A stretch of DNA of 64,000 bases, from the IMG/VR virus record IMGVR_UViG_3300045988_117466, positions 64,001-128,000 of that record, one strand, 5' to 3'. Source of the DNA: a virus. A model generated the notes under the pieces. The model was not told where the DNA came from and did no database searches. It saw only the letters and a program-made list of their open reading frames with translations. Shown piece after piece: positions 13,178-50,599 of this stretch (position 1 is its first letter; every line of letters begins with the position of its first letter). The translations under genes were made by a program, and so were the position numbers.

Positions 13178-13320
13178 CTATTACCACGTCAATTATGTTT
13201 TCATCGGTTCGCAACACCGACAAGAGTTTTCACTCCTCATGCTTTCACATGAGTTCAGACTATATCTTTTACCTGATTTTATTGTATGTATGTTTTGTTT
13301 GTTTTTTATTTGTGGGTATT

Positions 13321-13355
13321 AAAAAAGAGCAGAAGTAAAATTACTTTTGCTCTTC
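13321..13355 (-). terminator. Intrinsic terminator after the intron A cargo genes
   Basis: GAAGAGCAAAAGTA-loop-TACTTCTGCTCTTTTTT on the minus strand. Confidence 0.6.
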
Positions 13356-13380
13356 GGTAGAGGTTAAATTAATTTGTTTA

Positions 13381-14268
13381 TTATGCTCCTATACTTCGCC
13401 ATTTGCCTTTTGACCATTTGCAAATTTCTTCATCATCTATACAAAGGACATATTTTTTATTCCCGATTTTACAATTACAATGAATCTCTTCATCTCGGAT
13501 ATCCCACCATGTTAAAGATCCTTTGATTTTAAAATTTACCTTAGTCCATGTGCCAGGTTTGAGATCGATGTATTTTTTATTCCCTGTTAGTTTTAAGTTT
13601 CTGTCATATTTTTTGTAATCACAATCTAAAGAATAAGCACCTTTAGAATAAATACGAATTTTTTTATTACTTGCGTTAAAAAGCTTTGTTTTAAAAATAT
13701 TTGATCGAGTATCGTATTTATGCAACCAGCCGTTCATATGAATGCTTTTATATGGTTTTACAATTACGGAAATTGTTTTTTTAAAAGTTGTTGTTTTGTC
13801 CCAGGCGTTTTTAATTATATGATTGTTTAAGTCATCATCATAGTTCCCATTTTCTCCATAGCGATAATCATCATATACAGCAAAATGGTCTTCATAACAA
13901 TCAACACTTAATGTTATTTTGGATTTACCAAATTTCTTTGCATCAACATATGTATATAAATCTTCAACTCCAATTCCTTCATAAGAGTCTAAGGATATAT
14001 TTTTATTAGATCTTGACCATGAAATTGAATTAACATCCAAAGTGTATCCACCCTCTTCATCACCATAGTGCTTCCATAGCGTAGCATCATTTTTCATAAA
14101 TTCCCCATTATAGTATAGCTTAGGAGTAATTTTTTTCATCTGTCCATAATACATTGTAATAGTTTTAGGGACAGAGATACTGAAACCTGCTTGAGCGCTT
14201 TTGGTGTTAATAATCCATAAAAAACTAAACACTAATATAAAGGACATTAATTTTAAAAATTTTTTCAC
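13381..14268 (-). CDS. Secreted protein (intron A cargo)
   Basis: GTG at 14268 after GGAGGAGGG. Signal peptide VKKFLKLMSFILVFSFLWIINTKSAQA. Cys-rich C-terminus. No nuclease motif. Confidence 0.55.
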   Translation of the reverse strand: MKKFLKLMSFILVFSFLWIINTKSAQAGFSISVPKTITMYYGQMKKITPKLYYNGEFMKNDATLWKHYGDEEGGYTLDVNSISWSRSNKNISLDSYEGIGVEDLYTYVDAKKFGKSKITLSVDCYEDHFAVYDDYRYGENGNYDDDLNNHIIKNAWDKTTTFKKTISVIVKPYKSIHMNGWLHKYDTRSNIFKTKLFNASNKKIRIYSKGAYSLDCDYKKYDRNLKLTGNKKYIDLKPGTWTKVNFKIKGSLTWWDIRDEEIHCNCKIGNKKYVLCIDDEEICKWSKGKWRSIGA

Positions 14269-14284
14269 AATAGCACCCTCCTCC

Positions 14285-15154
14285 TTAAAATTCCTTTGTA
14301 ATCGGTTTTGTGAATGGTGTTTCACTTTCATAATAAGTATATTGCCCAGGGGATACCTTATCAGAATTTCCATAAGAAACTATTTCCATTTTGACAATCT
14401 TGTCCTTTGTTTCAAAACTGCTTTCTTCCCACATAGATTGATATGCTTTTAAATTATAGTAGTATAGAGATTGATCGCTTACTACGGTTCCATTTTTATC
14501 ATAAAAACGAATATCAATATTGGCCATATCATAATCATAGTCTGTTAGATTTTTGATTTTTATTCTATATGTCCGATATCCGTATGTAGATGCTTTGACT
14601 TCAATTTTTTCAATTTTATACGTGTCATCTATAAGCGTGGCTCCTTTCGGACAATATCCATTCTCTTTTATAAGTTCGTCATATGATTTCTTATCCCCTT
14701 TGGTTGTAAAAGAAAGATGTGTCTGATCAACTAACTTTTTTAGAATTTCCGCACGCTGGCTATTGTATACATAATAATTGTATTGTATCTTAGTCGGAGC
14801 ACTGGTGTAATCATCAAATAAATCATTTTGTGTATTTAAGGTTTTAATATATTCAGAAATTAAATTTTGTGTATTCTTGTTTTCGAATTGGATTTTAGTT
14901 TCTGAATATTTGTTTAGTGGTTTTAATTCAGTAGCGATATACTTTTGCATCATAGCTGCGTAGTCAGATTGAGATTGATTACTATCATCGGTCTTATCAC
15001 TAATCTCCCATCTTTTTTCGAGCCCAGTTTTTAAATCATTTGCTACTTGTTTGTCTGTGATTTTGGCTTCTTTTTGAGGAGCATCTTTCCCACAAGCACA
15101 AAATAAACATAAACTTGTAAGAAGCATACATCCAATTAAAATTTTCTTTTTCAT
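14285..15154 (-). CDS. Lipoprotein (intron A cargo)
   Basis: ATG at 15154, 7 nt after GGAGGG. MKKKILIGCMLLTSLCLFCAC-GKD is a lipobox-like signal. TATAAT lies at 15192-15187 on the minus strand. Confidence 0.65.
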   Translation of the reverse strand: MKKKILIGCMLLTSLCLFCACGKDAPQKEAKITDKQVANDLKTGLEKRWEISDKTDDSNQSQSDYAAMMQKYIATELKPLNKYSETKIQFENKNTQNLISEYIKTLNTQNDLFDDYTSAPTKIQYNYYVYNSQRAEILKKLVDQTHLSFTTKGDKKSYDELIKENGYCPKGATLIDDTYKIEKIEVKASTYGYRTYRIKIKNLTDYDYDMANIDIRFYDKNGTVVSDQSLYYYNLKAYQSMWEESSFETKDKIVKMEIVSYGNSDKVSPGQYTYYESETPFTKPITKEF

Positions 15155-15542
15155 ACATTTTCCCTCCATAATTTATTTATAAAGCAATTATACATTATTT
15201 GACATGTTTTTCATAGAGAGAATATTTGTTTATCATATTTATCAGGTAATTTATCATTTCGATTTAAACATTACTGTACCGCCATTAGCTTGCGGCTCTA
15301 CTCCTCATAAGAGGATAGTCGTTGAACCTTATCCTATTCGGATCTTGGCTGCTGATTGTCCATTGTAGCAGAAGCAGGGGATTTAACCTCGCTTCCATAT
15401 AATTAATTCTTTTTACTTTCGTAGCGTTCACATCTAGGCATATTTCATCCTTCTGTTGTAGCTTAATTATCTTTAAGACTTTCCAGCAATTAGATAAATT
15501 TTCACATATGTATTACTACATAAGGTCGCATATGTGGTTTAT

Positions 15543-18500
15543 ACGACAAGTTCGTCTCCTAATTCTCCTGTAAGAGCTCGTTCATCTTGTTTTAATCCCC
15601 AATCGCCACCATTAGCATGAGCATCTCCAGCAGATGATTTGAGCTTATCCGTTTTCTCTTGTAAATATTTGTTCTTTTCAGCCTGCACAACAGGATTAAT
15701 TTCTGATAAATCAGAGATTTTTGTTGTTCCCATCGCAAGAGCACGGCTTCCAAGCTTCTTAATTGTTCCGTGAGCAAAAGCACCAAATTCTTCAATATCA
15801 TCAAGCTCATTGTCGTACCAGTCTGTTAAGTCATCAACAGTACCTTGAGCGAAAGCATTTGAATATGGAATGAAAGATCCGTGTGCATTTGCTGTACCAT
15901 GGGCTTTGCCTTTCTTTTTTTTCTTTCCTGAGCTTTTCTTACCTCCTGAGGGCTCAGAAGGAGTACTACCAGTAACGAAATCAACAATTCGAGTGATATG
16001 TTTTGCTGCCCATCCTGCGATTGTTCCATCAGCAAGAGAGGTGTCCGCCTTAAGTTGTGCAGTGTTTGTAACTTTTTGGCTTTTCCATTCCTGAACTTTT
16101 TGATTCGCTTCAGTAATATCTCCTTTAAGATGTCCGGTTTTATCAACCTCAATCCCAAGGTATTCTAAAAGCTTTTGATTAGCTTTAGAAGCATCTACGT
16201 CTAATTTTCCTTCTTTGTCAATTGGAATATTTAAAAAATCAGCTATTTCTTTGGTGGCTTTTTTAGTATCTGCATCAACTTTAACGGTTGTAGACTTCTT
16301 TCCGCCTTTGCCAAGATTATCAATATCTTGTTTTGCCTTTTTGGTATTAGCCTTTACTTCAATAGTAACTTGACCTTTTTTCTTATGTTTATTGTATTCA
16401 TCAACAAGACGTTTAATCTCTTTATCAATCTTATCATTGCCAGTTTTTTCTACGGTATTATCTTTGCCAACCTTAAGTCCAGATTTTAACTTATTAAGTT
16501 GAGTGTTTAATCCAGATTTTGTTTTGATTTGCTTTCTAAAAACACCATTATCACTTTTGCCACTGACCATATTGGCAGTTTCTTTTTCAAGTTTAGATAC
16601 AGTTGTGTTTAAATTTTTGATTCTGCTTTTTAATTTACTTTGAGCTTCATTAAGTTTTTTCTTTGCACTTGCTTTATCATCGTCAGTTTTAGCATCTTTC
16701 CAAGTATCATAAGCATTGCTATAATCCTTTTGAGCTTTCTGTACAGAATCTCTAGCAGATTTAACTTTTTGATAAGAATTTTTCTTCCAGGATTCATATT
16801 TTTCGGTAGAATCTATAGCGTAATGGTTTTTGTCAGCTGTTGATTTAGCATTTGTAATAATTGAGTTACCATATTCAAACGCCTCTTCAGAATACTTATT
16901 ACCATATTTGTTTACAAGCTTTTTATCATTGGAATCAACAGCTCCTTCAAATTTGCTTTCTGCATCTTTAAATTCAGCCTTATCCTGAGCAATCTCAATC
17001 TCAAACTTTAACTTCTTGACCATCTCATCTGGGATATCTTCGCCAGCGTTTTTCAGTTTAAGAATCTGCTGTCTGTAATCCTCAATCTGTTCTCCTAATG
17101 CTGTTTTACCAGCACCATCTTTCATATTTTTCCATTTATCAACCAGTTGGTCAACATAACTTTCAGCTTTTTCGTACTGTTCTGTAACAGATTTAAAATC
17201 AATCTTACCACCATAATCTTTTAAACGATTCAGTACAGCTTCGAAAGGTTCAATACCCATACCCATTGCTTTAGCGGCAGTAGCAGTATTAGTGATCTTT
17301 CCAGAATATGTACCTTCAGCAGTTTTCTTTAAAGTACCAAAATCAGTATTAGCTTTTTGGGATTTGGCAGATAAATCATCTAAGAATTTAACCAGACCGC
17401 TATCATCAGAAGTAAAATACTTAGTAGTCTTAGCCCATGTCTTATCAAAAGTAGCAGCATCAGTCTTACCAGATGAACTCATAACACTTGTCAATGTTTT
17501 GAAATCATCTGTTCCAATAAGTCCTTTGTCACGTTCTTTCTTCTGAGCATTGAATGCTTCACGCATTGCTAAGTAAGTATCACCAGAGTCAGCTGTTTCT
17601 TTTGCTTGAAGATAATCACTCCAAGTAGACTGAGAGTTTGCCTGATTGATTAATTTAAGACGCTCTTTCAACTGATCAAGACTACCTGTCCATTTCTCAG
17701 TTTTAGAATTTAAGATATCAAAGGCTTGAGATGCTTCAGTAAGATTCAAACCATCAATGAAAGATTGAGTATCTTTATTATCACCAAGCTTTTCCTTGAT
17801 ATCTTCAATCATTGATTGAACATCTTTACCATCTTTTAAAAATCCTTCAAAATTTCCTTTATCGTCTAATTTGAAATCAACATTAAAAGAATCAGCCAAA
17901 GATTTGTTTAATTGCTCAATACTAACCCCATCATCTGTGGCAGCCTCTTTAAGCTTATCATAAGCATCTTTGGTATTATTGAGCCAATTCTGAACACCCT
18001 TGTTACTAGATTTATCATAGCTTTTAATAAACTTATCAAGAGCTCCTTGTGCTTTATCATCTTTAGCAAATTTCTTTGCTGCAGCAATAGTATTTTCTCG
18101 TTGTTCCTTGACCCAATCTTTATCTTTTAGATTATCTCTAGTCGCAGTATCTATGTTATAAGTATTAGATCCTAATCCTGTAAGGAAGCTTTGAGCACGA
18201 CTACCCAATTTATTATAATCAGTAATACTACCTGGCAATGAAGTGGCAATATCTTGATTGTATTGATCAAGAGCCTTTTGGGTTTTAGTAAGCCCAATTT
18301 TATATTTTTGAGCATAACCTGAGATTTTAGCGATTTCTTCACTAAGATCAGTTCCCTTAGGTAAATAGTCTTCAGTTTTATCCAAGATCTGCTTATATGA
18401 ACCAATAAATTTGTTCATGTCAGCTTGTTTGTATAAATCGAAGGTTTGATCCTTTGGTAATTTCAACACATCTTTGGCAGCCTTGTTGAAAGCAGTAGTT

Positions 18501-19531
18501 AACTGGCTGGTTTTATCGCCTTGCAGACCGTTTCTTAACTGAGTAGTTAAGGTGTCCATGTCGTTGCCCCAGAACTTATCAACACCAGTTCCAGAAGCTT
18601 TCTTAACATTCTCTATGTTACCTTCAACTAACTTGTCCCAAGTTTCATCAGAAGCATATTTCTTTTGTGCGCTTTCTTGTTTCTTCTCCTGAGATTCAAT
18701 CGCTTTGTCCATCAATCCAGATGTTTTAGCAATTGCATTTCCTTCTGCATCATATCCTGAAATAAGAGAAGGAGTAGTATCTAAAATTTCCTTGCGGATA
18801 CTTAAGAATCTCTCATAAGAAGAAGTATCTAAACTGATGTTATTACCGTATTCGTCTACACCTTTGGATAAAGATTCAAATTCTACTTTATTCCCTTTGA
18901 GAGTGGAAATATTACTTTGGACATCAGACATTTTGTCCTGATAAGTGCTACGGGTTTTATCAGCTTTTTCTACCTTATCTTTGTCATAAGTAGCAGCTTT
19001 CTTAATGTTTTCAATTCCTTTAGAAAGAGCACTTCCTGCAAATTCCATGATTAGACTTGCACCTAATCCTAATAACACATTTGCGGCAAAAGCACCAGCC
19101 TTAGCAGCTATGCCAGAAGCTTTAACATTTTCCACGAAACCTGCTAATCCACCTGCGGCAGATTGAGCAATGCTACCAGATTTTTCAACCTCTTTGTTGA
19201 ATTCTTCAAGACCTTTTCCATAACTATTTTTCTTATCACTAAGATCATAATTATTTTGCTTAGCTTGACCGTAAAGAGTACTAGCTGTATCACGACCTTT
19301 TTCAGTCTTCATTTCATCCTGAAGTCGCTTAAACATGTCCTCTTTTTCTTTGGTAGACTTATTACCAAAGATTTCAGGAACCATGCTGTTACTAAAGAAA
19401 TCCTGCAATCTACTTTGATCAGACTGCATATTCTCATAATTAGCCTTACGTCTTGTAGGACTAAGTGCATTCAGAATAGCACTACCAATTGGAAATTCAT
19501 TTTTACCAGTTTCTTTATTGTACTGTACAAG
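15543..19531 (-). CDS. Tape measure protein, exon 2 (ends are best guesses)
   Basis: Opens at TTG 19534 with no SD. K/E/D-rich coiled coil. Ends ..DAHANGGDWGLKQDERALTGELGDELVV and then stops. Confidence 0.6.
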
Positions 19532-19901
19532 CAAACTGTTTACTCAAGGGCAGGGAAATACCCTATTTTCACACTGGTAAAATATGTATTTGACAATCAC
19601 TAATGCAATATTCTATACTAATTATGTAACAAGAAATATGTATCATATCTCAAAGTAATAACACACATGGGGCTCACAATTCAGTGAGCCTTTTGTGTAT
19701 CTGAAATTAAAGGAGAAGAGAGGTTCATAAAGATACCTCTTTTTCGCAATTAACCTTGCAATATTTGGAAACATAAGTTATAATTAGAAACATCATGGAA
19801 TAATTAGTTCCCCAATTAATTATTTTCATACTAAAGGCATTCCTAGGAGGTAGGGATGCCTTTTCTCCATTTATGGGGTAACGATTCGTTCACCCATCAA
19901 A

Positions 19902-20708
19902 TTAACTTTCTAACTGATCTTCCAGATCCTTAATCTTAGAATCTCTAAATGCAATTTTCTTTCCAGTACTACGATGATTTGTTTCTATGTATCTACGTTT
20001 CAGATTGTTTAGTACATACTCTGCAGTCATTCTGTACATTGGATTTAGAGAACCAGAAGTTTCAATAATCGATTCAAGTTTATCATCGATCATTGTTACG
20101 ATTTTCTGCTTATACTCAGTTGCATTTAGTTTTCTATGATACTCATAGCGGTCTTTCTTTTTTAAATGAACGTGAACATCAATGATCTTATCAACAGTGG
20201 CTTCCAGATTTGTGTAATCAGATTCTAAAAGAACACGATCAATGTTGCGTACAGAATATTTAATTTTATCTGCATCATACTGTCTCTGAAGCTGACATTC
20301 ATCTGAAACTGCTACATCATATAGATCGTTATTATCTTGCTGAAGTTGTGTGATCAGCTCAATCATTCTCTCAAAAGCATCTGTGTATCTAGCTGTAAAG
20401 ATAAGAGCTTTGTTACCAGTAAACTTGTTTACCAGCATTGCAAATCCTTTACGATCAATATAATACATAGGACGCTCCTGGTTATTTAAATCAAGATAAG
20501 AGCCGAGGGAAAAATTTCCGGCGGCTAATTCAGGGATAACTTCTATAAAATGACGAATCTTTTTCATTACATCTGCATGGTCTTTCCCATAAGTCTCAGC
20601 CACATTGAGAGAAGTGGTGTACACATCACCATTGATCTCTTCAAGACCAAATTCCTCATTAATTTCTGCGATTTCACATTCAATAGCTTTCTTTGTTTCT
20701 TTTAACAT
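19902..20708 (-). CDS. Rha-family phage regulatory protein (intron B cargo)
   Basis: ..TSLNVAETYGKDHADVMKKIRHF..NFSLGSYLDLNNQERPMYYIDRKGFAMLVNKFTGNKALIFTARY.. matches the Rha/pRha pattern. Confidence 0.7.
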   Translation of the reverse strand: MLKETKKAIECEIAEINEEFGLEEINGDVYTTSLNVAETYGKDHADVMKKIRHFIEVIPELAAGNFSLGSYLDLNNQERPMYYIDRKGFAMLVNKFTGNKALIFTARYTDAFERMIELITQLQQDNNDLYDVAVSDECQLQRQYDADKIKYSVRNIDRVLLESDYTNLEATVDKIIDVHVHLKKKDRYEYHRKLNATEYKQKIVTMIDDKLESIIETSGSLNPMYRMTAEYVLNNLKRRYIETNHRSTGKKIAFRDSKIKDLEDQLES

Positions 20709-20743
20709 AATTCAATTTCTCCTTTTAATATAAACTTAATTTC

Positions 20744-20769
20744 AAAAGGGGTCGCATTTCACGACCCCC
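20744..20769 (-). terminator. Hairpin terminator between the Bro and Rha genes
   Basis: GGGGTCG-TGAAATG-CGACCCC followed by TTTT on the minus strand. Confidence 0.5.
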
Positions 20770-20793
20770 TATCAACAACAATCTCACCAAACT

Positions 20794-21600
20794 TTAATCT
20801 TCAAGATCCCCAACAACTCTGTAAACAAGTTTCTGACCTTTACCAGTTACATAAGTCTGTGGAACAATCACATTGCAAATCACATGTTCACCAACTTCAA
20901 AACATCCGTTCTCAACGTATCTCTGATATGGCATGTTGTCCCGCATCAGGATTCCATTACTTCTCAGAATCTCAAAAAGACGATTCCTTCCAATGTCATA
21001 TCCATCATTCTGCAACAATTTGGCCATTGTGTTCATGTCGATCGTATCAGAAGAAGCAGTAACACATCTTGCAAAATCTACATCTTCTTTGGAAGCTTCA
21101 AGTTCTCCACGAAGCTCTGCGATTGTAGCTTGCTGAATTTCTAATGCTTTGAGTACAAACTCAGCTTCAGACAGATTTTTATATGGAATGTATCCACCTG
21201 TACGTCTGATCTGTGGAAGAACTTCAGATGTTACCCATCTTTTGAAACGATGTAATTTTTCAATTCTCTCTTCAATAAGGGGGTCATTTTGTGACACCCC
21301 CTTTGCTTTAGCAGGTTGCATTAAGAATAATAATGAATATAGTCCTGATTCATTAAGAACTGTGATGTTTTGCATTCCTCCAGCGGTTTGAATTTTTGCC
21401 ATTGTTTTGTCAGCTTTGTCAATTCTACGCAAGCTACGCTTGTGATTTGTATCTCCAAAAGCTATGCATACATCTTTTCCAACAAACCAAGGTTCATTGT
21501 CAATCTCAACGCATCTGATTGATCCAAATTCGTCATTTACGAAGTTCATGATCTGATTGTTATTTCCTACTTCATTTTCTGCTTTTGTTAAATTTGCCAT
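20794..21600 (-). CDS. Bro-N / KilAC antirepressor-type protein (intron B cargo)
   Basis: ..FGSIRCVEIDNEPWFVGKDVCIAFG..TAGGMQNITVLNESGLYSLLF..FKRWVTSEVLPQIRRTGGY.. is classic Bro-N. The C-terminal half is KilAC-like. Confidence 0.8.
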   Translation of the reverse strand: MANLTKAENEVGNNNQIMNFVNDEFGSIRCVEIDNEPWFVGKDVCIAFGDTNHKRSLRRIDKADKTMAKIQTAGGMQNITVLNESGLYSLLFLMQPAKAKGVSQNDPLIEERIEKLHRFKRWVTSEVLPQIRRTGGYIPYKNLSEAEFVLKALEIQQATIAELRGELEASKEDVDFARCVTASSDTIDMNTMAKLLQNDGYDIGRNRLFEILRSNGILMRDNMPYQRYVENGCFEVGEHVICNVIVPQTYVTGKGQKLVYRVVGDLED

Positions 21601-21670
21601 ATTAAATTCTCCTTTTCTTCAGAAAGGTGCACCAAATGGCATAGAACAGATGGTGCTGATGATTTGCTTA

Positions 21671-21759
21671 TCCTTCTATGCATATATGGCTAATTTACTA
21701 CCCCTTTAAAACACCAGGCTCTACCTAATGTTTTAAGACTCAATTAATGTGGTAAGTCT
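21671..21759 (-). promoter_or_regulatory. Conserved hairpin cassette, copy 1 (upstream of the Bro gene)
   Basis: TTACCACATTAATTGAG, a long imperfect hairpin, then GGGGTAGTAAATTAGCCATATATGCATAGAAGGATAAG. Two more copies lie at 48054-48144 and 48238-48330. Confidence 0.5.
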
Positions 21760-22233
21760 GCTAGAGCAGTATAAAAAGAGTATTAAATTATGTTAATGAG
21801 TATTTATAATATATCATATAAAATTCATTTCCCTATGTGCAAGCATGTTTCCATGCTGATAATTTTCTAGCGGCACATTCGCATACAGTTCTGATCATCC
21901 CTTTCTGATGTCACTCGTAAGGTGAGTTAACCAGATTCCCATTATGATCGATGGACGTTCCTCTAATATAGAGGCTTCGCTGCGGATTCTGTATAAATAT
22001 TGATCTTATTACTATATCTTAGGAATTACCCCTTGCCCTTAATACATCACTGTACTAAGTTAGTAATCAATATCGTTTAACAGTTCCCGTACATAAATTA
22101 TCAAAAAGTATTTCAGTTTCGGTTGTTTTCTAAGCAATCTCTTATTTGTATCACCATTTCGATACAAACTCGTTCTGTGTTACCACTAGATTGCTCTGGG
22201 CATTGTACATGAGGACAACTGATAATTTGCCCT

Positions 22234-39790: not shown

Positions 39791-41036
39791 CATCGTTCTG
39801 TTACTTTTTTTGACCTGTATATCAAACACTATATTTCCAAATAAAACCTCCTGATGTTTTACAATGACCAGAACAGCAATATTGAATATTTTCTTTTTTA
39901 ATTCCAGTTTGCTTTTCAGCAATAAGGGCAGATTCGAACTGACGTAAGAAATCACCTTTTTTTGAATATTGCAAAACACTTTTCCGTTTTATTGAAGTGG
40001 TTTTAGAATGTTTAAAATCAGTCAACAGATCTTCTTGATGATCGGAGACTGAGTATTTGTCTACATATCTAAAAATAAATCCTTTACAAGTTTTTCTTTT
40101 TTTGTTACATACGGAAGAAATTTGTCCACCAGTAGCATTAATGCTTTCCCCCGCTTCTGTGGCACTTTTATATATACCAAGTAGATTAAAATCTAAATCA
40201 TATTTGACGACCATTTTTGGCATTTGAGATACTTTGAGATAAGAAAAGTCAAAATCAGGTGAGTTATAATCATTTTCATATACCCAAAAAAACCCACCAA
40301 TAGTTTTTTGATAATTTTGGCGTTCACAACATGATCGTATCCCTCGAATGTACAATCCTAAAGTTTTACCAGCATGTGAACAGCTATCCCATTTATGTAC
40401 TATTTGTAAATCTTTATCTAATTGCAATACAGATTTGGGATTTTGAATATGTCGCATTTTAAATATCTCATTTTCTGAATGCTCGTACCCAACGATCCCT
40501 TTGCCTCCAATACATTGATTGTAAACATGATTTTTTGAGCTAAAAAATTTAATCCATTTTTGCTCTCTGTCATCAAGTGTTGCTACATCACAAGTTTCAA
40601 CAGATTTAAACTCAAAATTATCTTCACCATATTTATTCCAGTCTCTTTGAAGTAGACAATTATGATGGCGGTTATTGTTTAAATCTGACTTATGGTGACG
40701 CCATCTTTTGTTTAATTGGGAGGTTTGTCCAATATAATAAGTGTCATTAATTTTATTTTTTATGTAGTATATATTTCCATTCATTTTCCATTTACTTCTT
40801 GGTATCTATACAGGCGAATAAGACGTTAATCTTATTTCTCATATTTCATTTGTTATAGTATGAGTCCAGACTATCGCATCTCCATATAATTGCCGATGGA
40901 GTTCTTTCACTTAGTCGTTGCAGCTGCACGGTTTTCCTGCTTGCTGTGGGTTATCCTCTACAGGACTTTCCCAAATTGATCAGAAAGAATTGAAAATACA
41001 GTTTATGGATTATGCTGTATTTGCCCTATGCGATTA
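39791..41036 (-). mobile_element. Group I intron T in terL with a GIY-YIG endonuclease gene
   Basis: P1 GCCT|/GGGC (41040-41037 / 41026-41023), terminal G at 39791. Core-like GGATAACCCACAGCAAGCAGG at 40936-40956. Spliced ORF is in frame (662 codons). Confidence 0.75.
39822..40784 (-). CDS. GIY-YIG homing endonuclease
   Basis: N-terminus NIYYIKNKINDTYYIGQTSQLNKRWRHHKSDLNNNRHHNCLLQRDWNKYG is the GIY-YIG module. Repeated ..GGF.W.Y.. DNA-binding modules follow. Confidence 0.85.
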   Translation of the reverse strand: MNGNIYYIKNKINDTYYIGQTSQLNKRWRHHKSDLNNNRHHNCLLQRDWNKYGEDNFEFKSVETCDVATLDDREQKWIKFFSSKNHVYNQCIGGKGIVGYEHSENEIFKMRHIQNPKSVLQLDKDLQIVHKWDSCSHAGKTLGLYIRGIRSCCERQNYQKTIGGFFWVYENDYNSPDFDFSYLKVSQMPKMVVKYDLDFNLLGIYKSATEAGESINATGGQISSVCNKKRKTCKGFIFRYVDKYSVSDHQEDLLTDFKHSKTTSIKRKSVLQYSKKGDFLRQFESALIAEKQTGIKKENIQYCCSGHCKTSGGFIWKYSV

Positions 41037-42888
41037 AGGCTCTATCGTCATGCATTTTATTAGCTTTCTGGGGATCAAGATCAAATCTGTCCTTGCCAGA
41101 AGCCTGTTTGAATCGATAAATATTAACCAATTCAGTTTTTGCGTGATCAATTTGTTTCAAAGCAATCTCTTCATAAGTGGTTAACTTGTGAATTTGAGTA
41201 TCAACAGTGATTTCTTTTTTGCTTAATATTTTTTCCTCGTCCTCGGATGGGAAATAATCACGCAGAGTACGATTACCATTTTTATCAATCTCATAAATTA
41301 AGTTGATGAATCCCTTTCCGTCATACTCATTCGGAAATTCAATCAGACCTAAATCCATCATTTGAATCAAAGATTCAAACATTTCAGACTTATATTTCAA
41401 TGGGGACATCAGTTTTACGATGTCTGGGATAGCATTAGGGAAGTTTCTAGCTTCCTCGGCAGAATATTCCTTATCAATCAATCCTCGATGCATTAATCCG
41501 TCTGAATCTTCCCAATCCTCCAGAAAGAAGTCAGTAATAGGTACGCCAGCTCCACCAGAACCTGCATCAACTAAAAATCTCTTGATATTTTGGTAATCAG
41601 CAACGCCATCACCGTTATAATCTAATAGTAATTGTTTGATTGCTTTAATCTGATTTGGGGTATTCATAGGAGTTTTATTAGCTTTGAAATAATCTTGAAG
41701 ACATACAAGATTGACAATTTTCATTTTTAATCCCTGTGTAGGATCTTCATAAAGTTCTCCTATGGCAAGAGCAGAATTATCGTGTGATCTAGCAGGGTCA
41801 TATGCAAAAACATACTTTCTGCGACCATCTGGATTCTTAAGAACTGGAATTCTGTTGTAAGAGTTCTTAATGATCCTTGCTCTTTTAATGATCTGACCAT
41901 CTCCACCTTCATTTGTGAAGATGTTATAATATTCACGCAATGCGGCTTCCTTATCTGTTCGCATAGCACTGTCTACAGTACTTTGACTTAACAGAGGTTT
42001 AGGTAGTCCAATGCCTCTTTTTGTTGCTTTAATAATGACATCACAGCTAATATCAGCACAAAAATAGTTTTTATCTCCTGCATCCATTCGTAGGCTACAT
42101 TCTCTGTACTTTTTATAAAAATACTGGTCAGTACGACCTGCAGAAGAGCAGTAGAGTAACTGATTTTCGAACATAGGTGGTTTCATAAGCATTTCAGAAC
42201 CATCTCCATTTGTTCCTAATGCAAAATCAGCGTTCTGAGTTGTAAATGGTTCAGAAGTATCAAATAATTCATCTGGACTGTTCATTGCTTCATCATATAC
42301 ATTGCAATTGCTACGCTTGGAGCGGTTGTTGTTATATGCACCGTTCAAAGTAAAAATCTGTGCATCATTGTACAATTGATGATGATATGAAGCAGGATTG
42401 TGAACAAATCCATCTTTATTTGCATGAGATTTAATAATTTCACTTGCATAAACACTTGTAAGTGTTGTAAATGAAGGAACTTCATTCTTTGTGATCTTTT
42501 CAAGCTTTGAATACATTTCAATAGACTGTGATCCAACACCGCATAGAATATAAGCGGTGAAGTTTGGTACTAACAGCGATTTAGTCATCAAATAGATAGA
42601 TGCCAATGCACTTTTACCACCATTTCGACTCATAGCCCATACTGCAACCTTAGAAGTCCAAGTATTCATGAATATATAGGTCTGATAGTCCATTAATTCA
42701 ACACCGAATATCTCTGATGCGAATCTGGTAGGATTCCTTCGGCCCCATTGAATGAACTCAGCAGTCTCTTTGTATTGCTCATACTGACGATTTGTAATGT
42801 CATATAGACTAGGTTTTTTGAAGATTTGATAATTCTTTGGGAGATATACACCAGATTCGTGTAATTCGTATTTCTTACTTTCTCTCAA
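41037..42888 (-). CDS. terL: Terminase large subunit, exon 1
   Basis: Walker-A-like MSRNGGKS, Walker-B-like CNVYDEAMN. Ends ..KMHDDRA. Located upstream of the portal. Confidence 0.8.
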
Positions 42889-44063
42889 TAATCAATCACC
42901 TCACCATCTTCAGTCATGAGGCGCTTTTCAATTAGAAAATCTTTAAGATCTCTGTTTTCTACGAGAAGGATTCTTGCCCTTTCAAGAGCTTCATCACGTT
43001 CTCTACTATATTGTTCAACTAACTCAACTTTAATATCTTTGATTTCTGATGCAATGTTCTCATCATAGCCAATCTGTTTATGACGAGCTTCTTCTGAAAT
43101 CTCTGCAACCTGGCGCATTCCTTCACAAGTACCAATATCAAAGGTGTTAATTTCTGCCTCTCGGAACCCAATATCTCGTAAATGCTTTTCTTTCCCGGAC
43201 AGAGTGAATGCACCTTTGGATTTATTATTGTTATTTGTGATAGAAATACCATTTTCTTTAGCTAATGAGTTAATATTATTGACCAGTTTTGAAACTGTTT
43301 CAGATAAGTTTTTGACAACAGCATTGTTCTGTACAGCAGTTGTAACATCAATCGTGTACGCATCAATAGCTGCGTTAAGATTTGTGATCTGAGCTTGTGA
43401 CTTAACAATTTGGATTGCAGCAATCATCTTCATTGCATCATTTTTAGTTTCTTCATCCAAAAAGTTAACAAGCTGAGAGTAGAGTAGAGGCATGTCTTTT
43501 TCACTTGGGTATTCATCAAATGGATCATACCCAATGATTTTAATGACATCCTTCCTATTTTGTTCATATGCTTCTTTAAGAGCTTCAGCATCAGTATAAA
43601 TGGATTCTGTTTTTACTTTGGATACATGAGTCATATCTTTAAAAATATCACTATCACGCCAACGCTTACCATGATACTGATTCAAACCAAGACTTGTTAG
43701 ATAAACACCCCATATAGTTTTATTTTCTTTCTTTTTACCTCTTTCTGGAGGCTTGTTTGCACTGAATACAGCAGTTTCCCATAAATCTTCATAGAATGGC
43801 TTATCTAAATACTCTAAAGCATCTTGAACGCTTTCTCTTGTCTCTCCAAGAAATTCTCCAGCATCAGTTTTTCTACGAGCAACAGCAGTAGAACAATCTT
43901 TACAGATTCTTGTAATACCTGTTAAAACTCTAGGATCTGAACTACTATAGAATTTTGTCTTTGGAAGATCTTTGTTGCAAAAAGGACAGCGAAATGTTTC
44001 TTCTTTTTGCGCTTGTACCTTTTTAGCAGAGGATTGTGTACGGCGCATTGCAGTTTTCGCCAT
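42885..44063 (-). CDS. Putative terminase small subunit with N-terminal zinc ribbon
   Basis: Overlaps the terL start. CPFC..CKDC motif and a coiled-coil C-terminus. Positional call. Confidence 0.4.
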   Translation of the reverse strand: MAKTAMRRTQSSAKKVQAQKEETFRCPFCNKDLPKTKFYSSSDPRVLTGITRICKDCSTAVARRKTDAGEFLGETRESVQDALEYLDKPFYEDLWETAVFSANKPPERGKKKENKTIWGVYLTSLGLNQYHGKRWRDSDIFKDMTHVSKVKTESIYTDAEALKEAYEQNRKDVIKIIGYDPFDEYPSEKDMPLLYSQLVNFLDEETKNDAMKMIAAIQIVKSQAQITNLNAAIDAYTIDVTTAVQNNAVVKNLSETVSKLVNNINSLAKENGISITNNNNKSKGAFTLSGKEKHLRDIGFREAEINTFDIGTCEGMRQVAEISEEARHKQIGYDENIASEIKDIKVELVEQYSRERDEALERARILLVENRDLKDFLIEKRLMTEDGEVIDY

Positions 44064-45692: not shown

Positions 45693-45702
45693 TTGGACAT
45701 AG

Positions 45703-45775
<73 letters not shown>

Positions 45776-45959
45776 ACAAAAAGAGTACATTGTAACTACC
45801 AACAATGTACTCAAATTTAGAAAAGAGGTATAAATTATGATTCCTACAAGAAATCTTAATAGCTTTGTAAATCTTTCTGAGGTATGAAACAACAATAGAA
45901 AAGCGCAATAATCAAAACTTCACAAGAAAGGAGATAATATGATTCCTCAGAAAGATTAA

Positions 45960-46031
45960 CAGGGATAACTGGATTTGAACCAGTGAATACAGCAGTCAAA
46001 GTGCTGTGCCTTACCGCTTGGCGATATCCCT
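45960..46031 (-). tRNA. tRNA-Gln (UUG)
   Basis: Acceptor AGGGATA/TATCCCT, anticodon loop CTTTGAC, T-loop TTCAAAT. Confidence 0.85.
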
Positions 46032-46644
46032 ATATGTATTTTAATTTTAAAGCAGGTCTTCACCTTACAGTCATTTGTGGAATAGTTTGTTCTGCAACAT
46101 AGTAGATAAGTCTGAGCTTTGAGGAGCGACCTCTAACTTCTTACCTAAGTCTAAAAGACCAGTTCTATGACATGATCAATACATGCAATGTCAACCCGCC
46201 ATTCAGAATTAAGTTTTATTGTTATATACTCTATTAGCATATATATTCATTTTGAATTTGAACTTACCCTTAACTGACTTGAGCGACATACCAGCGACTT
46301 TTCTTATACACTGTCTTTTGAACAGCTTCACATCAAACTACATTATTTGGCTTTTCCACCTTTTACGTACCTGCCAGAGTACGCATTGAAGTGGATTATT
46401 CTCCACAGGAGCGTCTATTGTTGTAGCGAAAAGTTCTGTGCGTTAACCAGACCAAAATGCTGCACAATATCCATTTGCTTGAGAGTTTCTCTCTTGTCCA
46501 TATCAAATCACTCCGACATAAAAAGAGACACAAAGAACGTATCCGTACAATGTATCTCTCCAATTCGACATATGTGCCTAGAATATTTCTCGGACTCATG
46601 GCATTGAGTTTTATAACCGAGTTGCTTATGTTTTAAAATACAAA
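46032..46644 (-). ncRNA. ORF-free 613-nt insert in the tRNA array; candidate large structured RNA (strand assumed)
   Basis: No credible ORF on either strand. Flanked directly by tRNA-Gln and tRNA-Trp. Several local hairpins (GTGGA..TCCAC, ACGTAC..GTACGT). Confidence 0.3.
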
Positions 46645-46716
46645 CACCCTAAGCTGGATTTGAACCAGCACGAACGGTTTTGGAGACCGTCATTCTACCA
46701 ACTAAATTATTAGGGC
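46645..46716 (-). tRNA. tRNA-Trp (CCA)
   Basis: Acceptor GCCCTAA/TTAGGGT, anticodon loop CTCCAAA, T-loop TTCAAAT. Confidence 0.85.
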
Positions 46717-46723
46717 GATATTA

Positions 46724-46797
46724 CTGACATGACAGGACTCGAACCTGCAACACCAACGTCCGTAGCGTTGTGCTCTGTCCAGTTGAGCTACATGTCA
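46724..46797 (-). tRNA. tRNA-Arg (ACG)
   Basis: Acceptor TGACATG/CATGTCA, anticodon loop CTACGGA, T-loop TTCGAGT. Confidence 0.85.
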
Positions 46798-46841
46798 TTA
46801 AAATTCGACCTCAATCCACATAGGATTTTGAGGTACTTTCG

Positions 46842-46925
46842 TCCCTGTTGAGGGAATCGAACCCACTCGTGACCGAAGCCATCTGATTTACAGTCAGATC
46901 CGCCTCCTTAGCGGGATAAACAGGG
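46842..46925 (-). tRNA. tRNA-Tyr (GUA), long variable arm
   Basis: Acceptor CCCTGTT/AACAGGG, anticodon loop CTGTAAA, variable arm TGGCTTCGGTCA. Confidence 0.8.
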
Positions 46926-46968
46926 ATATAAGCCCGTGAGCTCGAAAGACATCACAGGACAACCTAAA

Positions 46969-47054
46969 CGCTGCGACAAGGATTCGAACCTTGAGGTCAC
47001 TAGGACACAATAGTTTTCAAGACTACGCCGTTATAACCATTTCGGTACCGCAGC
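46969..47054 (-). tRNA. tRNA-Ser (UGA), long variable arm
   Basis: Acceptor GCTGCGG/TCGCAGC, anticodon loop CTTGAAA, T-loop TTCGAAT. Confidence 0.85.
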
Positions 47055-47059
47055 AAAAG

Positions 47060-47151
47060 CGTACAGAGTGGGCTACGACCCCACGTTACATGTATTCGCA
47101 TGTAAACCCAATTAGCAGTCGGGCGCCTTAAACCAACTCAGCCATCTGTAC
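47060..47151 (-). tRNA. tRNA-Ser (GCU), long variable arm, atypical T-loop
   Basis: Acceptor GTACAGA/TCTGTAC, anticodon loop CTGCTAA. T-loop is GTCGTAG rather than TTCRANN. Confidence 0.7.
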
Positions 47152-47335
47152 ATAATTTTTGTAGACCACTTGAAGTAAAGATTCACAAATCACATTGAAC
47201 CAAGTTATCGAAAGCTTCTACATGTCTTCGTCCGTGCGCATCAGACTAATCATTTTACGATGTGTGATTTATTTATACTGCCTTAGCAGTTGGTTCACCA
47301 AAATCTGTTCGCAAACAGTCTGGATCTCTCGTCAA

Positions 47336-47719
47336 TTACTTGACTAAGTATACTTTTCGGTATTTCTTCCCAAATTTTCTAACTTGGCTGTGAGAAGAGA
47401 AGTACATGTCGATGTGTTTTCCTTTTACGCCGCCTCCGACATCTTCGGCTACCAGTGTCTTACCACCAATTCTCACTTTGCTACCGAGTTTAATTTTTCT
47501 TCGATCGACTGAGATAGTTCTACCGGCTTTTGCTCTGCGTCCAGAAGCAGTACGATTTCCCCATCCACCAGAACAACTACGACAACCACAGTAAGCTGTG
47601 ATTTTGTATGTTCCTAAACATTTGACTTTTTTGCTCTTTGCTGGAACAGAAGAAGTAAGTCCTCTAACTGTGATCAACAAGGCCATTAACAGTGCGATCA
47701 TTGAAATTCTCTTTTTCAT
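47336..47719 (-). CDS. 3D-domain (MltA/RlpA-like barrel) exported cell-wall-active protein
   Basis: Signal/TM MKKRISMIALLMALLITV. ..TAYCGC..GNRTASGRRAKAGRTISVDRRKIKLGSKVRIGGKTLVAEDVGGGVKGKHIDMYF.. matches the 3D-domain pattern. Confidence 0.7.
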   Translation of the reverse strand: MKKRISMIALLMALLITVRGLTSSVPAKSKKVKCLGTYKITAYCGCRSCSGGWGNRTASGRRAKAGRTISVDRRKIKLGSKVRIGGKTLVAEDVGGGVKGKHIDMYFSSHSQVRKFGKKYRKVYLVK

Positions 47720-48053: not shown

Positions 48054-48144
48054 TATCCTTCCTTTCATATATCACTATTTTACCACCCCTTCAAAACACT
48101 AGGTTTTACCTGGGTTTCTGAGGGGTATTTAATGTGGTAATTCT
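48054..48144 (-). promoter_or_regulatory. Conserved hairpin cassette, copy 3
   Basis: TTACCACATTAAATAC, hairpin, GGGGTGGTAAAATAGTGATATATGAAAGGAAGGATA. Confidence 0.5.
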
Positions 48145-48237
48145 GCTCACCACTCAAAAATTTGTCTTAAAATACACTTTTTAGTATATATAATTAACTT
48201 TATTTTCTTTTTGAAAATCTGATCTTTTGAGCATTTC

Positions 48238-48330
48238 CTTATCCTTCCTTCCATATATCACTATTTTACCACCCCCTGAAAAACGTAGGTAGAACCTAGC
48301 GTTTTCAGGGTCAATTAATGTGGTAATTCT
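48238..48330 (-). promoter_or_regulatory. Conserved hairpin cassette, copy 2
   Basis: TTACCACATTAATTGAC, hairpin CCCTGAAAACGCTAGG/CCTACGTTTTTCAGGG, GGTGGTAAAATAGTGATATATGGAAGGAAGGATAAGG. Confidence 0.5.
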
Positions 48331-48341
48331 TTTTGCTGGCC

Positions 48342-49196
48342 TTATTTTTTGTCAGAATTATAGTATTTAGTATATCTATTTAACTGCATTTCATTCTTAC
48401 AAGAAATACAATACTGTCTAAGCCGTCCTTTACGATGCTTTTTCTTTTTTGAGATGTCTCTAAAAGGTTCTCCACAACAAGAGCATACAGAAATCTCAGG
48501 ATATCCAATAAAGTGAAGATATCTGTTCCCAAGATTCTTGAAGTCTGTAATTTCAAGAGCGACATCTCCTGAATCAGCAAGAATATCTACAGAGAAGTTT
48601 AAGCTATTAACTTTCTTGCTCATTGTTATACAATCGCTTCTGAACAGTCTGCCGATTATTTGGCATCTACGTTCTCTTGTACCTACTGTATTACCCAATG
48701 AGAATAAATCTTTGTAGTCTGTATTCACCCAGCTGTTATTTTGAGGATTCAGAGCATTATAATACTTGGCCAAACAAAGAGCAGTGAAGAGGATCTTTTG
48801 ATCTCTAAGATTCTCTAACCCATTTATAGTTTCCATTTCAGATTCATAGATCGGCAGTGAATCAATTTCTACAAGAGGATACTTTTTAGCTTTATGAATT
48901 ATCTCATCAATGCATGAATACCATTTGGCTTCTCTGTAGCTCTCACAGGACTCTTTTAAGAACTCATTGATAGTTTTATATACCTCTGCAGGTTCTAAGC
49001 CTTCCTCGTGGATATAATACTTTGCAAGCAGGGTAGCAGTATATGGGATACTGCCTTCCAGCTCTTTTGTTTCTAAAATTTTTTCTACCAGTTTTTTTTC
49101 ATTTAGTACGATATTAATAACAATCAGCCTCCTCAAACATAGATGATTCAATTTGTTTAATAGTTTCAATGACGAAAGAATCTCCGTCATATTCAA
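48342..49196 (-). CDS. Hypothetical protein with C-terminal zinc ribbon (start uncertain)
   Basis: CSCCGEPF..YCISCKNE motif. Overlaps the RNAP stop. The only SD (GAGGAGG) is followed by ATT/ATC codons rather than ATG. Confidence 0.4.
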   Translation of the reverse strand: MNMTEILSSLKLLNKLNHLCLRRLIVINIVLNEKKLVEKILETKELEGSIPYTATLLAKYYIHEEGLEPAEVYKTINEFLKESCESYREAKWYSCIDEIIHKAKKYPLVEIDSLPIYESEMETINGLENLRDQKILFTALCLAKYYNALNPQNNSWVNTDYKDLFSLGNTVGTRERRCQIIGRLFRSDCITMSKKVNSLNFSVDILADSGDVALEITDFKNLGNRYLHFIGYPEISVCSCCGEPFRDISKKKKHRKGRLRQYCISCKNEMQLNRYTKYYNSDKK

Positions 49197-50256
49197 AATC
49201 TCCTGATTCAGCTCTTACAGGATAAGAGATCTGGTGATAGTTTCTCTCTAAGAGTCTTTGGACAAGAATGTCTCCAAACATGTCCCATACAAACTGCTTA
49301 CTCTTACCATTGGTGTAGCAGAGATCAAGAAGAATGTCACAAGCTTTCTCAGGATCAGGAACAGCAGTAGCAACAGCTTCTCTGAACAACATGACTCGAT
49401 TATTGATAATGTCTGTTACATTTAGACCAAAACCACCCTTACCGTTGATCAGAGCATTTAAGGTTTTCATTTTCTTTGAATATTCACTGTACAGCTTCTT
49501 AAGAGCATAATAATCATTCTTGTTGTACTCATGATCTCTTTTGAGAATGGAGTAATCAAAATCTGTTTGTGTGTTCAACTTCTTTAAGTATCCATCAAAC
49601 TCATCCTCAAAGAGCTTACAGATTCGATTCATTACACAAGGCCCTGTACCTACAGGCAAGAACTTATAGTAGTGGTCTAAGAATTCCGCTTCATCCTCTG
49701 TGATAGGTTCTGTATCAGCTTTCTTGAGCAATTCATCAATCGTACACCCAAACCAGATGATGCATTTGTCATTTGAAGCTTTCACATAATTTGTATAATC
49801 CTTTCTCAGATGAGAGTAGATGTAGATCATGAAGTATGGCTTCTTGTCAGCTACGATTCTCTGGTTGAATTCTTTCCGCTTACGATCCTTTGGTGAGTCT
49901 TCAGGATGGATGTTATTTTCCTTGCGATTGTACCAGTAAGATGGTATTGGTTTACACACGATGCCTTTTAGACGATCAATACTTCCTTGTTGATATAGCT
50001 GACCACAAATGATTCTGTAATCTAGTTCTTTAAACTCATCACTGTCAGGGGAGTAATGAGACTGTACTTCAAACTGAGAAGTGATGATGTTTGTTGTGAA
50101 GCCAATTTCGTCTCCAAAGGCATCCTTGTAAGCTTTTAGGATGTCTTTCTTTTTGGGAACAATCTTATTAGCCTTACGCTGCACACAAATGATTGATGGA
50201 AGAGGACGATTGTTCTCAACAAGTATTCTGTTGTTAGTTGTGAAGAAGAGGTCTCC
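49114..50256 (-). CDS. Two-barrel (YonO/QDE-1-like) RNA polymerase, exon 2
   Basis: The frame opens GDLFFTTNNRILVEN.. right after G 50257. No SD. Contains SIDRLKG. Confidence 0.65.
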   Translation of the reverse strand, partial: GDLFFTTNNRILVENNRPLPSIICVQRKANKIVPKKKDILKAYKDAFGDEIGFTTNIITSQFEVQSHYSPDSDEFKELDYRIICGQLYQQGSIDRLKGIVCKPIPSYWYNRKENNIHPEDSPKDRKRKEFNQRIVADKKPYFMIYIYSHLRKDYTNYVKASNDKCIIWFGCTIDELLKKADTEPITEDEAEFLDHYYKFLPVGTGPCVMNRICKLFEDEFDGYLKKLNTQTDFDYSILKRDHEYNKNDYYALKKLYSEYSKKMKTLNALINGKGGFGLNVTDIINNRVMLFREAVATAVPDPEKACDILLDLCYTNGKSKQFVWDMFGDILVQRLLERNYHQISYPVRAESGDFEYDGDSFVIETIKQIESSMFEEADCY

Positions 50257-50599
50257 CGATGTACCCTCGGTTTCCCGATATTTATGGAGAAAGGGGACTA
50301 GACTATATCATTACACAGCATAGGTCTTACACTGTGATGCTCGGCACTTCCCTTGGGGAGTTTCACCCTTTTGGTACTCTACTTGCTACCGATACCGTAT
50401 TCCTCGAATATCAGTGCTTTGGTTAGTCGTTTAACTTTCAATTTCTTGCTTAGCACAGGATTACCACCGACTCTACTCGCTGAGGCTTCCCTGTTAGCAC
50501 ATGTGTTAACTTCCATTTCCTGAAGCTACTGTATGTCACATGTACACCTTACATTTGTAAGTTCACCGAGTTTTACTTCGACAAATGGTATGCTCAGAT
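50257..50599 (-). mobile_element. ORF-less group I intron R (343 nt) in the RNA polymerase gene
   Basis: 7-bp P1 CTTCGAT|/GTCGAAG (50606-50600 / 50582-50576) with U.G at the splice site, terminal G at 50257. Core-like AATCCTGTGCTAAGC at 50448-50462. Splicing restores DFDGD in frame. Confidence 0.85.

Follow-up and report, generated by a model that had tools for sequence, protein, structure and literature searches.

Group I introns of class IA have been described in several phages. Those of T4 (td, nrdB and sunY), Twort and the Bastillevirinae are small, lie in conserved motifs of essential phage genes, contain extra helices of the P7.1/P7.2 type, and hold GIY-YIG, LAGLIDADG or HNH genes in peripheral loops. 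They occur in forms with and without an open reading frame (ORF), and several can share one gene, including that of TerL (PMC11878797). In the Bastillevirinae, the host genes encode DNA polymerase, TerL, thymidylate synthase and ribonucleotide reductase, all intron ORFs are endonucleases, and the non-coding part measures 350 ± 108 nucleotides (nt) (PMC11878797). We find, in a 64,000-nt stretch of viral DNA (positions 64,001 to 128,000 of IMG/VR record IMGVR_UViG_3300045988_117466; hereafter the window), five gene interruptions that resemble these introns, which we name A, B, N, T and R and read as group I introns. Unlike those of the Bastillevirinae, their hosts include genes for a YonO-type RNA polymerase, the tape-measure protein (TMP) and a head–tail structural protein, and the genes that A and B hold, about 2 kb, encode no endonuclease.

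The only bacterial precedent that we found for non-endonuclease cargo is the IStron. A review of bacterial group I introns names endonucleases and IStron transposases as the only cargo, and the Clostridioides difficile IStron (CdISt1) is of IA type, with cargo other than a homing endonuclease near the 3′ part of the ribozyme (PMC3984707). In the IStron, however, the cargo encodes an IS605-family transposase, which mobilizes the element, whereas the cargo found here consists of lipoprotein, membrane and anti-repressor genes without mobility function; and, unlike IStrons, the introns here are fixed at one site, with only the cargo varying. A literature search for introns with accessory gene cassettes returned nothing relevant. 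Accessory gene cassettes that lie between essential genes are known as phage “morons” (Hendrix and colleagues). The cargo described below resembles morons in that its cassettes look autonomous, with a promoter-like site, a ribosome-binding site, gene(s) and, in A, a terminator, in that it varies among close relatives, and in its typical gene types, surface lipoproteins and anti-repressors. Unlike morons, it sits inside a gene, in an intron loop.

The window derives from a ~130-kb phage infecting human-gut Lachnospiraceae, with a late-gene order like that of SPbeta, whose single-chain late-gene RNA polymerase is YonO (PMC5467207). Both a YonO-homologous polymerase and the matching late-gene order are present, the window paralleling yonO-yonN-yonJ-yonF-yonE. 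In SPbeta itself, yonO, the terminase gene yonF and other late genes are annotated as uninterrupted, unlike here. Group I introns do occur in phages of the SPbeta type; the known ones of SPbeta (bnrdE/bnrdF) lie in ribonucleotide reductase genes. Metagenome-assembled genomes with identical TMP fragments are labeled Anaerostipes hadrus and Lachnospiraceae, which indicates the probable host, and a search of GenBank phage DNA found no close relatives, only tRNA matches.

Mechanical ORF calling on the window reports four genes interrupted by gaps with stop codons. One pair of products, of 578 and 356 amino acids (aa), is broken such that the first ends ...GCDFD and the second starts GDLFF...; the 620-aa TerL ORF ends ...KMHDDRALIA, and behind it come first a GIY-YIG ORF, then a short tail; a pair of 142 and 197 aa encloses a LAGLIDADG gene in two pieces; and three very large ORFs (1373, 1331 and 1127 aa) are jointly laid out like a single TMP, with, in order, a TP901-type core region, hydrophobic glycine-rich segments and a GE.G.E block. 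We give a probability of roughly 0.8 to the reading that the five interruptions in these genes and gene segments are group I introns in essential phage genes; R, T, N and A are well supported and B is probable. They would leave the late transcript via standard two-step, guanosine-initiated transesterification. The predicted introns and their split hosts are as follows (coordinates refer to the whole window, where all genes of interest are on the minus strand; ^ marks a junction).

50257–50599, minus strand: intron R, 343 nt, no ORF, splitting a YonO-like RNA polymerase between DFD and GD; predicted exon–exon junction CGACTTCGAT^GGAGACCTCT.
39794–41036, minus strand: intron T, 1243 nt, in TerL past HDDRA; predicted junction GATAGAGCCT^ATGTAATCGC.
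31412–32771, minus strand: intron N, 1360 nt, interrupting a structural gene of 349 aa with exons 33198–32772 and 31411–30789; predicted junction GAAATTCGT^ACAATCAAGG.
19532–22233, minus strand: probable intron B, 2702 nt, in the TMP gene, with RNA parts 22233–~21830 and ~19890–19532; predicted junction AAAGCTGGGT^CTTGTACAGT (peptide ...GAKGKLG-LVQYNK...).
13190–15542, minus strand: intron A, 2353 nt, IA-like, with the 5′ RNA half at 15542–15243 and the 3′ half at 13275–13190; predicted junction AACTTGTCGT^ACGTGGTAAT (peptide ...GDELVV-RGNRWF...).
49114–52330, minus strand: YonO-type RNA polymerase gene, exon 1 52330–50600 and exon 2 50256–49114.
9760–26307, minus strand: TMP gene, exons 26307–22234, 19531–15543 and 13189–9760.

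The sites proposed in an initial annotation of this DNA are largely confirmed: R lies inside the catalytic DFD^GD motif of the polymerase, T five codons past the HDD motif of TerL, A in the GE.GPE block of TMP (between GELGDELVV and GSQGPE), and B at a second TMP site. That all insertions are in conserved blocks holds for R, T and A but is not supported for B and N. The supposed neck gene that hosts N is a structural gene lying between the modules for head and tail; its family, PHROG 5251, has no assigned function.

The boundaries of R, T and N are given exactly by relatives that lack them. Two sets of relatives were compared, 15 IMG/VR contigs with 96–100% protein identity in TerL and 14 more that share the middle TMP exon at 61–92%; those lacking R, T or N are ~93–99% identical across this stretch, and their sites were read from BLAST maps and junction read-outs. 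For R, relative L010 has the exact empty site TGT GAC TTC GAT^GGG GAC, and R is absent too from L002 and L004, both with a DHDGD allele. For T, seven relatives have the empty site GAC GAT AGA GCT T^AT GTT ATC, with silent changes flanking it (GCT to GCC, GTT to GTA), and splicing after U41037 and G39794 gives a protein identical to the empty allele, HDDRAYVIAML. For N, the empty site is TCG T^AC AAT, seen in relative L013. All three sites coincide with the junctions predicted from intron structure: U(−1) is in a U·G pair in all three, R and T end in G, and a P1 helix with U·G at the 5′ site is present in all five introns. P1 of R pairs CUUCGAU/GUCGAAG (last nucleotide G50257), whereas that of N, CGU/GCG, is only 3 bp. 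In T, P1 is GCCU/GGGC, P7 is GACUA/UAGUC and P8 is CUCCAU/AUGGAG, with P3 to P9 assigned by inspection.

Joining the exons also restores the encoded proteins. The spliced 957-aa polymerase is 28% identical to SPbeta YonO over 506 aa (E 3e-28), and the alignment is unbroken through the junction, with DFDGD facing DNDGD. The separate exon products match phrog_25339 and phrog_35857, while the full-length family is phrog_8308. The polymerase gene is unbroken in Enterocloster phage PMBT24 and Bacillus phage BUCT082, while two other Enterocloster phages, CB457P1 and CB473P3, and Clostridium phage c-st have it split; a PDB sequence search with the polymerase gave no match. Similarly, the exon products of the N host gene match the N- and C-terminal parts of phrog_5251, and the alignment of the spliced product with Sundance gp027 runs across the junction without a break.

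R, T and N would be ordinary mobile phage introns, each at another stage of the homing cycle, with an intact GIY-YIG gene in T, a nonsense-mutated LAGLIDADG gene in N, and R free of an endonuclease gene here while holding an HNH gene in relatives. The two endonuclease genes of the window are:

39822–40784, minus strand: GIY-YIG homing endonuclease gene in intron T, downstream of P9.
31442–32410, minus strand: LAGLIDADG endonuclease gene in intron N, with an in-frame TAA at 31990–31988.

The T gene is intact and has GIY-YIG, NUMOD1 and I-HmuI NUMOD-like domains (Pfam). It is seen in the window only; eight relatives have intron T without it, the region 40808–39818 being missing, such that T exists in three states among genomes: intron-free, ORF-less intron and ORF-bearing intron. 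The two LAGLIDADG ORFs of N carry LGFLDADG and FIRGYFDGNG, and the second matches the endonuclease family phrog_4645. In relative L001, a CAA codon replaces the stop and the ORF is intact over 318 aa; by this comparison, the endonuclease gene of N in the window is nonsense-mutated and decaying. In relatives L001 and L013, R contains a 171-aa HNH ORF (L001:1564–2138).

Two further observations concern these introns. The first seven nucleotides of T, TAATCGC (41036–41030), recur at exon-2 positions 4–10 (39790–39784, minus strand), where the intron-less allele reads TTATCGC. In relative L014 (19380–20880), an N-type core is followed by a second N-like core (75% identical) and then by an intact 327-aa LAGLIDADG ORF and the 3′ end of the neighboring N2-type intron, by its look a case of tandem or nested introns.

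A has a fold in common with N and with a 366-nt ORF-less intron that relatives carry at window position 43071, both of its RNA halves being homologous to these two. MAFFT alignment of the cargo-deleted A, the ORF-less intron and N, followed by RNAalifold, yields P2, P4, P5 with extensions, P6, a long-range P7, P7.2, P8 and P9, and 28 of the 70 pairs are compensatory (changed on both sides), including pairs in P6, P7 and P8. In A, P1 is GUCGU/GCGAC with U·G, P3 is UUUAUC/GAUAAA, P7 pairs GACUA (15320–15316) with UAGUC (13262–13258), P8 pairs UUACCUG (15249–15243) with CAGGUAA (13275–13269), and P9 lies at 13253–13236. P7 covaries between A (GACUA/UAGUC) and N (GAGCA/UGCUC), and P8 is compensatory across the junction left by deleting the cargo of A. 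Between P7 and the 3′ strand of P3, A and its ORF-less relative have two hairpins (CCUC/GAGG and GCCGC/GGCGGU, the second of which RNAalifold predicts), and N has one. The terminal G13190 is placed by homology, ...CAUAAUUG^ of A aligning with ...CAUAAUGG^ of the ORF-less relative.

The exon downstream of A is coding. Past the predicted 3′ site, in 13183–13144, all nine substitutions in three relatives are at third codon positions. This stretch follows a TGA and holds no ATG, GTG or TTG, with 45 nt before the first possible start; it is translatable only when joined to upstream coding RNA. Exon 2, for its part, has only a TTG, without a ribosome-binding site. Removing 22233–19532 and 15542–13190 restores a single 3830-aa TMP ORF, and exon 1 aligns to the contiguous 2528-aa TMP of the SPbeta-like phage Sundance. 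Unspliced, the first two polypeptides would end ...CTMPRAI and ...GDELVV.

B is probably a spliced group I intron as well, as judged from the helices around its splice sites and from conservation. P1 pairs CUGGGU (22239–22234) with GCCCAG (22201–22196), with U·G at 22234, and P10 pairs UUGUAC of exon 2 with GUACAA (22208–22203), which lies beside P1 in the shared guide sequence; the intron ends with G19532. P2 has 8 bp (22195–22188 with 22140–22133), and variants of the hairpin enclosed stay paired. P3, also of 8 bp, joins UGAUAAUU (22103–22096) and AAUUAUCA (21864–21857) directly before P4, its 3′ strand directly preceding a GAAA-capped hairpin. P4, P5 and P6 match a canonical intron of an unrelated phage (L039), with an exact 17-mer in common. 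The RNA parts of B are nearly invariant in 14 viral-contig relatives, with more near-identical copies in metagenome contigs, unlike the middle TMP exon, which has only 61–64% protein identity in most relatives.

Several results weigh against reading all five interruptions as spliced group I introns. The best score against RF00028, the Rfam group I model, is 38.6 bits, below the gathering score of 50 bits, and A and B return nothing. In a sequence-only profile of the Q–R region from which B was left out, B is the top-scoring non-member in the window, but only at E = 0.49. P7 and J8/7 of B are not assignable, one candidate being lost to uncompensated variation. No empty-site allele was found, for A or for B, in any collection searched. 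Intron A contains a strong terminator hairpin on the coding strand. Finally, N appears to end in A31412 and not in the universal group I terminal G.

Regarding the covariance model, no group I match was found by Rfam in the whole window at the gathering threshold, or in a 44-kb search at E ≤ 10; the speed filters lose even the 38.6-bit match of N in large searches and are laxer in small windows. Searched in this way, N matches the full model (E 6e-8), R matches the full model at 26.8 bits (E 6e-5, 441-nt search) and T matches partially at 11.9 bits (positions 55–152). A has no match in a small-window search, nor does B, even when the search is 416 nt; both have ~2 kb inserted inside or beside the core, unbridgeable for the model. 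The covariance-model check suggested in the initial annotation thus fails for A and B and stays sub-threshold for R, N and T, an outcome that we consider overridden by the other evidence. RF00028 is the sole intron family matched in the window.

A recurring core block had been noted in all five. The 18-mers quoted for it are all present on the minus strand (A 15361–15344; N 32639–32622; T 40956–40939; B 21991–21974; R 50465–50448), but the consensus AAyC-N5/6-GC-N-AAG was mis-spaced and matches none of the five introns. Corrected to AAYC-N4-GC-N-AAG, it has 4 matches against 0.91 expected, a number reached by 0 of 100 shuffles; three of the four are A, B and R, while T lacks the single N and N deviates. 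Nor is the block J6/7-P7-P3, as had been suggested: RF00028 alignments, in which GGUAAUCCUGUGCUAAG is aligned to GguAAuCCGCAGCCAAa, identify it as P5′/P4′(Q)-P6. The fourth match, AACCAACTGCTAAG at 47282–47295 (minus strand), lies between a tRNA cluster and the ORF 47336–47719; it is probably a chance match, with no further group I element nearby.

For N, the junction after the terminal A is one on which the empty sites, P1 and a 4-bp P10 (ACAA/UUGU) in exact register agree. The 3′ end reads ..AUCAAAGA^ACAAUC, and eight relatives with a diverged 3′ tail agree on the terminal A. N appears either to ligate after a terminal A or to depart from the standard splicing scheme. In the former case, it would be a natural group I intron that joins its exons after a terminal A, a smaller novelty of this locus.

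For B, no candidate for the missing elements is convincing. UCC/GGG past the hairpin gives a P7 of only 3 bp. UCCAU/AUGGA (AUGGA at 19870–19866, past the cargo), the best candidate, is invariant and of 5 bp but has G·G in place of the guanosine-binding G-C pair, and GAUCAU/AUGAUC has the wrong topology. An S-like element, GAGAUAUGAUAC (19651–19640), was rejected, as it varies without compensation in 10 of 14 relatives. Complement scans for a P7 partner found none that is conserved, non-coding and closed by a canonical G-C pair, and in the minimum-free-energy fold of the cargo-deleted B, P1, P2 and P6 form whereas P3 and P7 do not. A pattern scan of viral contigs for a cargo-free B-type intron returned the same lineage and one unrelated canonical intron, that of L039. 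An 18-mer scan of metagenomes returned, besides 31 chance matches, 13 copies of B, none of them cargo-free and all with 1 kb of cargo or more.

Of the alternatives, the one that survives best is that B, although of group I ancestry, has ceased to be an autonomous ribozyme, and needs a protein cofactor or other factor or splices inefficiently. A P7 that is weak in every model, and the failure of both RF00028 and the family hidden Markov model, agree with this. In the Bastillevirinae, moreover, four of the eight spliced genes were spliced in infected cells only and not in vitro (PMC11878797). We nonetheless consider it unlikely: P1, P10, P2, P3 and P4–P6 are intact and conserved in the 14 viral-contig relatives, and B resides in an essential gene, in every copy retrieved.

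The two TMP introns are also the ones with unusual contents. A and B were found in each copy of the TMP gene retrieved, and would carry accessory cargo in place of endonucleases, A in its P8 loop and B in P8 or else past the core:

13318–15242, minus strand: cargo cassette of A in the P8 loop, with ORFs 15169–14285 (lipoprotein signal) and 14373–13381 and a terminator at ~13355–13318.
19902–21600, minus strand: cargo of B, an Ant-type anti-repressor gene (21600–20794) and a Rha-type regulator gene (20708–19902).

The second ORF of A has a hydrophobic N-terminal segment, and no endonuclease or nuclease domain was found in either ORF of A (Pfam, PHROG). The cassette has a TATAAT-type promoter-like site and a GGAGG ribosome-binding site, although promoter scans gave matches that were not enriched over shuffles. 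Its terminator hairpin has −13.9 kcal/mol (z = −5.5) and is followed by U6. In 12 relatives, conserved P8 anchors enclose 1412–2110 nt of differing cargo, including other lipoproteins, a zinc-ribbon membrane protein, DUF4177 and DUF4179. The genes of B encode Bro-N plus KilAC (ANT) and Phage_pRha domains by Pfam, match anti-repressor families in PHROG, and have no endonuclease domain; in relatives whole genes are swapped or missing, and the cargo of the metagenome copies measures 1.0–1.9 kb.

We tentatively propose, with odds slightly short of even, that A and B serve as safe harbors, in which the ribozyme halves are fixed within an essential late gene and a peripheral loop forms an exchangeable slot for independently expressed accessory genes. 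Such a slot could hold genes expressed early or during lysogeny inside a packed tail operon at no coding cost, among them anti-repressors and surface lipoproteins, of which the lipoproteins could mediate superinfection exclusion. The YonO-type polymerase, which is without the hairpin-termination flap domain, may read through the cargo terminator.

Were A and/or B not spliced, three separate TMP polypeptides would be made, and the gaps would be accessory-gene islands with old intron relics. To this account belong the lack of an empty-site allele and of an Rfam match, the terminator in A and the incomplete core of B; in addition, genes split around endonuclease genes do occur in phages, as in nrdA/mobE of Aeh1. 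No intron-less TMP allele was found in a search of genome contigs, and none of the 113 matches that a protein search returned for the spliced B junction spans it. The distant TMPs of Sundance and PMBT24 are too diverged past the TP901 core region; no intron-less homologue closely spans the A or B junction. However, an unspliced gene does not account for the codon constraint on exon 3 over 45 nt without a start codon, for an exon 2 with only a TTG and no ribosome-binding site, or for intron RNA halves that are near-invariant beside a middle exon of 61–64% protein identity. It also leaves unexplained that P1 U·G, P10 and the terminal G fall exactly where the frame is restored, and that compensatory pairs span the cargo of A. 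We therefore regard unspliced A and B as improbable and infer that the introns are actually spliced.

Some observations on the TMP region stand beside this. The exon DNA next to A and B (15904–15543 and 19531–18633) is 88–96% identical in L018–L029, and the distal TMP exon has no BLASTN match; such islands of exon similarity would be compatible with co-conversion or recombination centered on the introns. In the cultured phage CB457P1 (OP172753.1; L090:2964–4081), a 1.1-kb gap between two annotated TMP ORFs contains a group I-like Q/P6/R block, CAATCCGCAACGAAAC...CTCAACGCATA, together with pieces of a zinc-ribbon ORF. The gap is not named as an intron in the published comparison of Enterocloster phages, which took the split TMP gene as a possible tail-length difference (PMC11035940).

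The relatives carry further insertions of the same kind, at sites unoccupied in the window:

Window 42325/42318, TerL: 320 or 1316 nt, the long form with a 315-aa LAGLIDADG ORF (L008:8746–10060).
Window 43071, in gene 42885–44063: 366 nt, ORF-less, A/N-type.
Near window 22877, TMP exon 1: 589–1580 nt, with a 382-aa zinc-ribbon ORF (L016:5107–6686).

In addition, five relatives have a different intron 27 nt downstream in the N host gene, instead of N. The lineage thus has at least nine insertion sites, and two contigs hold eight each (L015+L024; L012+L018) in ~40 kb. A and N are 57% identical overall and 64% in the P3–P7 core, and A and the ORF-less intron 63%. On sequence and fold, A and N form one lineage with the ORF-less intron of the 43071 site, whereas T, R and B are related at class level only. 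Of the earlier description as five related introns, it stands that these are group I-type elements and not intergenic gaps, while only A and N are specifically related.

That the five are recent copies of one element spread inside this genome, as the initial annotation suggested, is not supported and improbable. The long identical runs shared by A and N are indeed present (15489–15439 and 32722–32672), as is their common P9 hairpin, and an A/N-type ORF-less intron occupies a third site. The 12-mer ATGTGAAAGCAT occurs exactly three times against 0.03 expected: at 13239–13250 and 32508–32519, in the P9 hairpins of A and N, and at 9738–9749. However, A and N are no closer than the identities given above, T, R and B match at the generic core only, and the introns carry different endonuclease genes, from three families, or none. 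The variable occupancy of sites points instead to exchange between co-infecting relatives, and the visible mobility consists in R, T and N being gained and lost among close relatives. A and B, without endonucleases, show no presence/absence polymorphism among relatives.

An origin as another kind of element (group II introns, inteins or insertion sequences) is very unlikely despite the 7-nt direct repeat at the borders of T: all interruptions contain stop codons and are therefore not inteins, no reverse transcriptase or transposase was found (Pfam, PHROG), A, T and R contain the R and S elements of group I introns (CAACGACUA ... GAUAUAGUC), and no intron family other than RF00028 is matched.

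The introns extend the host genes of phage group I introns, now including the catalytic DxDGD motif of a YonO polymerase. They also mean that a common gut-phage lineage is mis-annotated, its RNA polymerase, TerL, TMP and structural genes being called as fragments; PHROGs in fact keeps separate families for the two polymerase halves. What is new, compared with the systems described, is that A, and probably B, has exchangeable cargo other than endonuclease genes, and that insertion sites are so dense in this lineage. If splicing of A and B is true, group I introns would join the known phage accessory-gene vehicles. Cultured relatives exist in the Enterocloster bolteae phages CB457P1 and CB473P3, both with a split polymerase, the former also with a split TMP.

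We note two features outside the introns. The third copy of the 12-mer forms the stem-loop of the terminator past the TMP stop codon (−17.4 kcal/mol), whose hairpin at 9731–9756 (minus strand) has AUGUGAAAGCAU, the 12-mer also seen in P9 of A and N, which may reflect either shared origin or chance. A cluster of seven tRNA genes (45702–47151, minus strand; Thr, Gln, Trp, Arg, Tyr, Ser, Ser) is located between the polymerase module and the terminase module, and within it a full-length ROOL RNA is found at 46034–46645 (minus strand), scoring 303.7 bits against a gathering score of 99.1.

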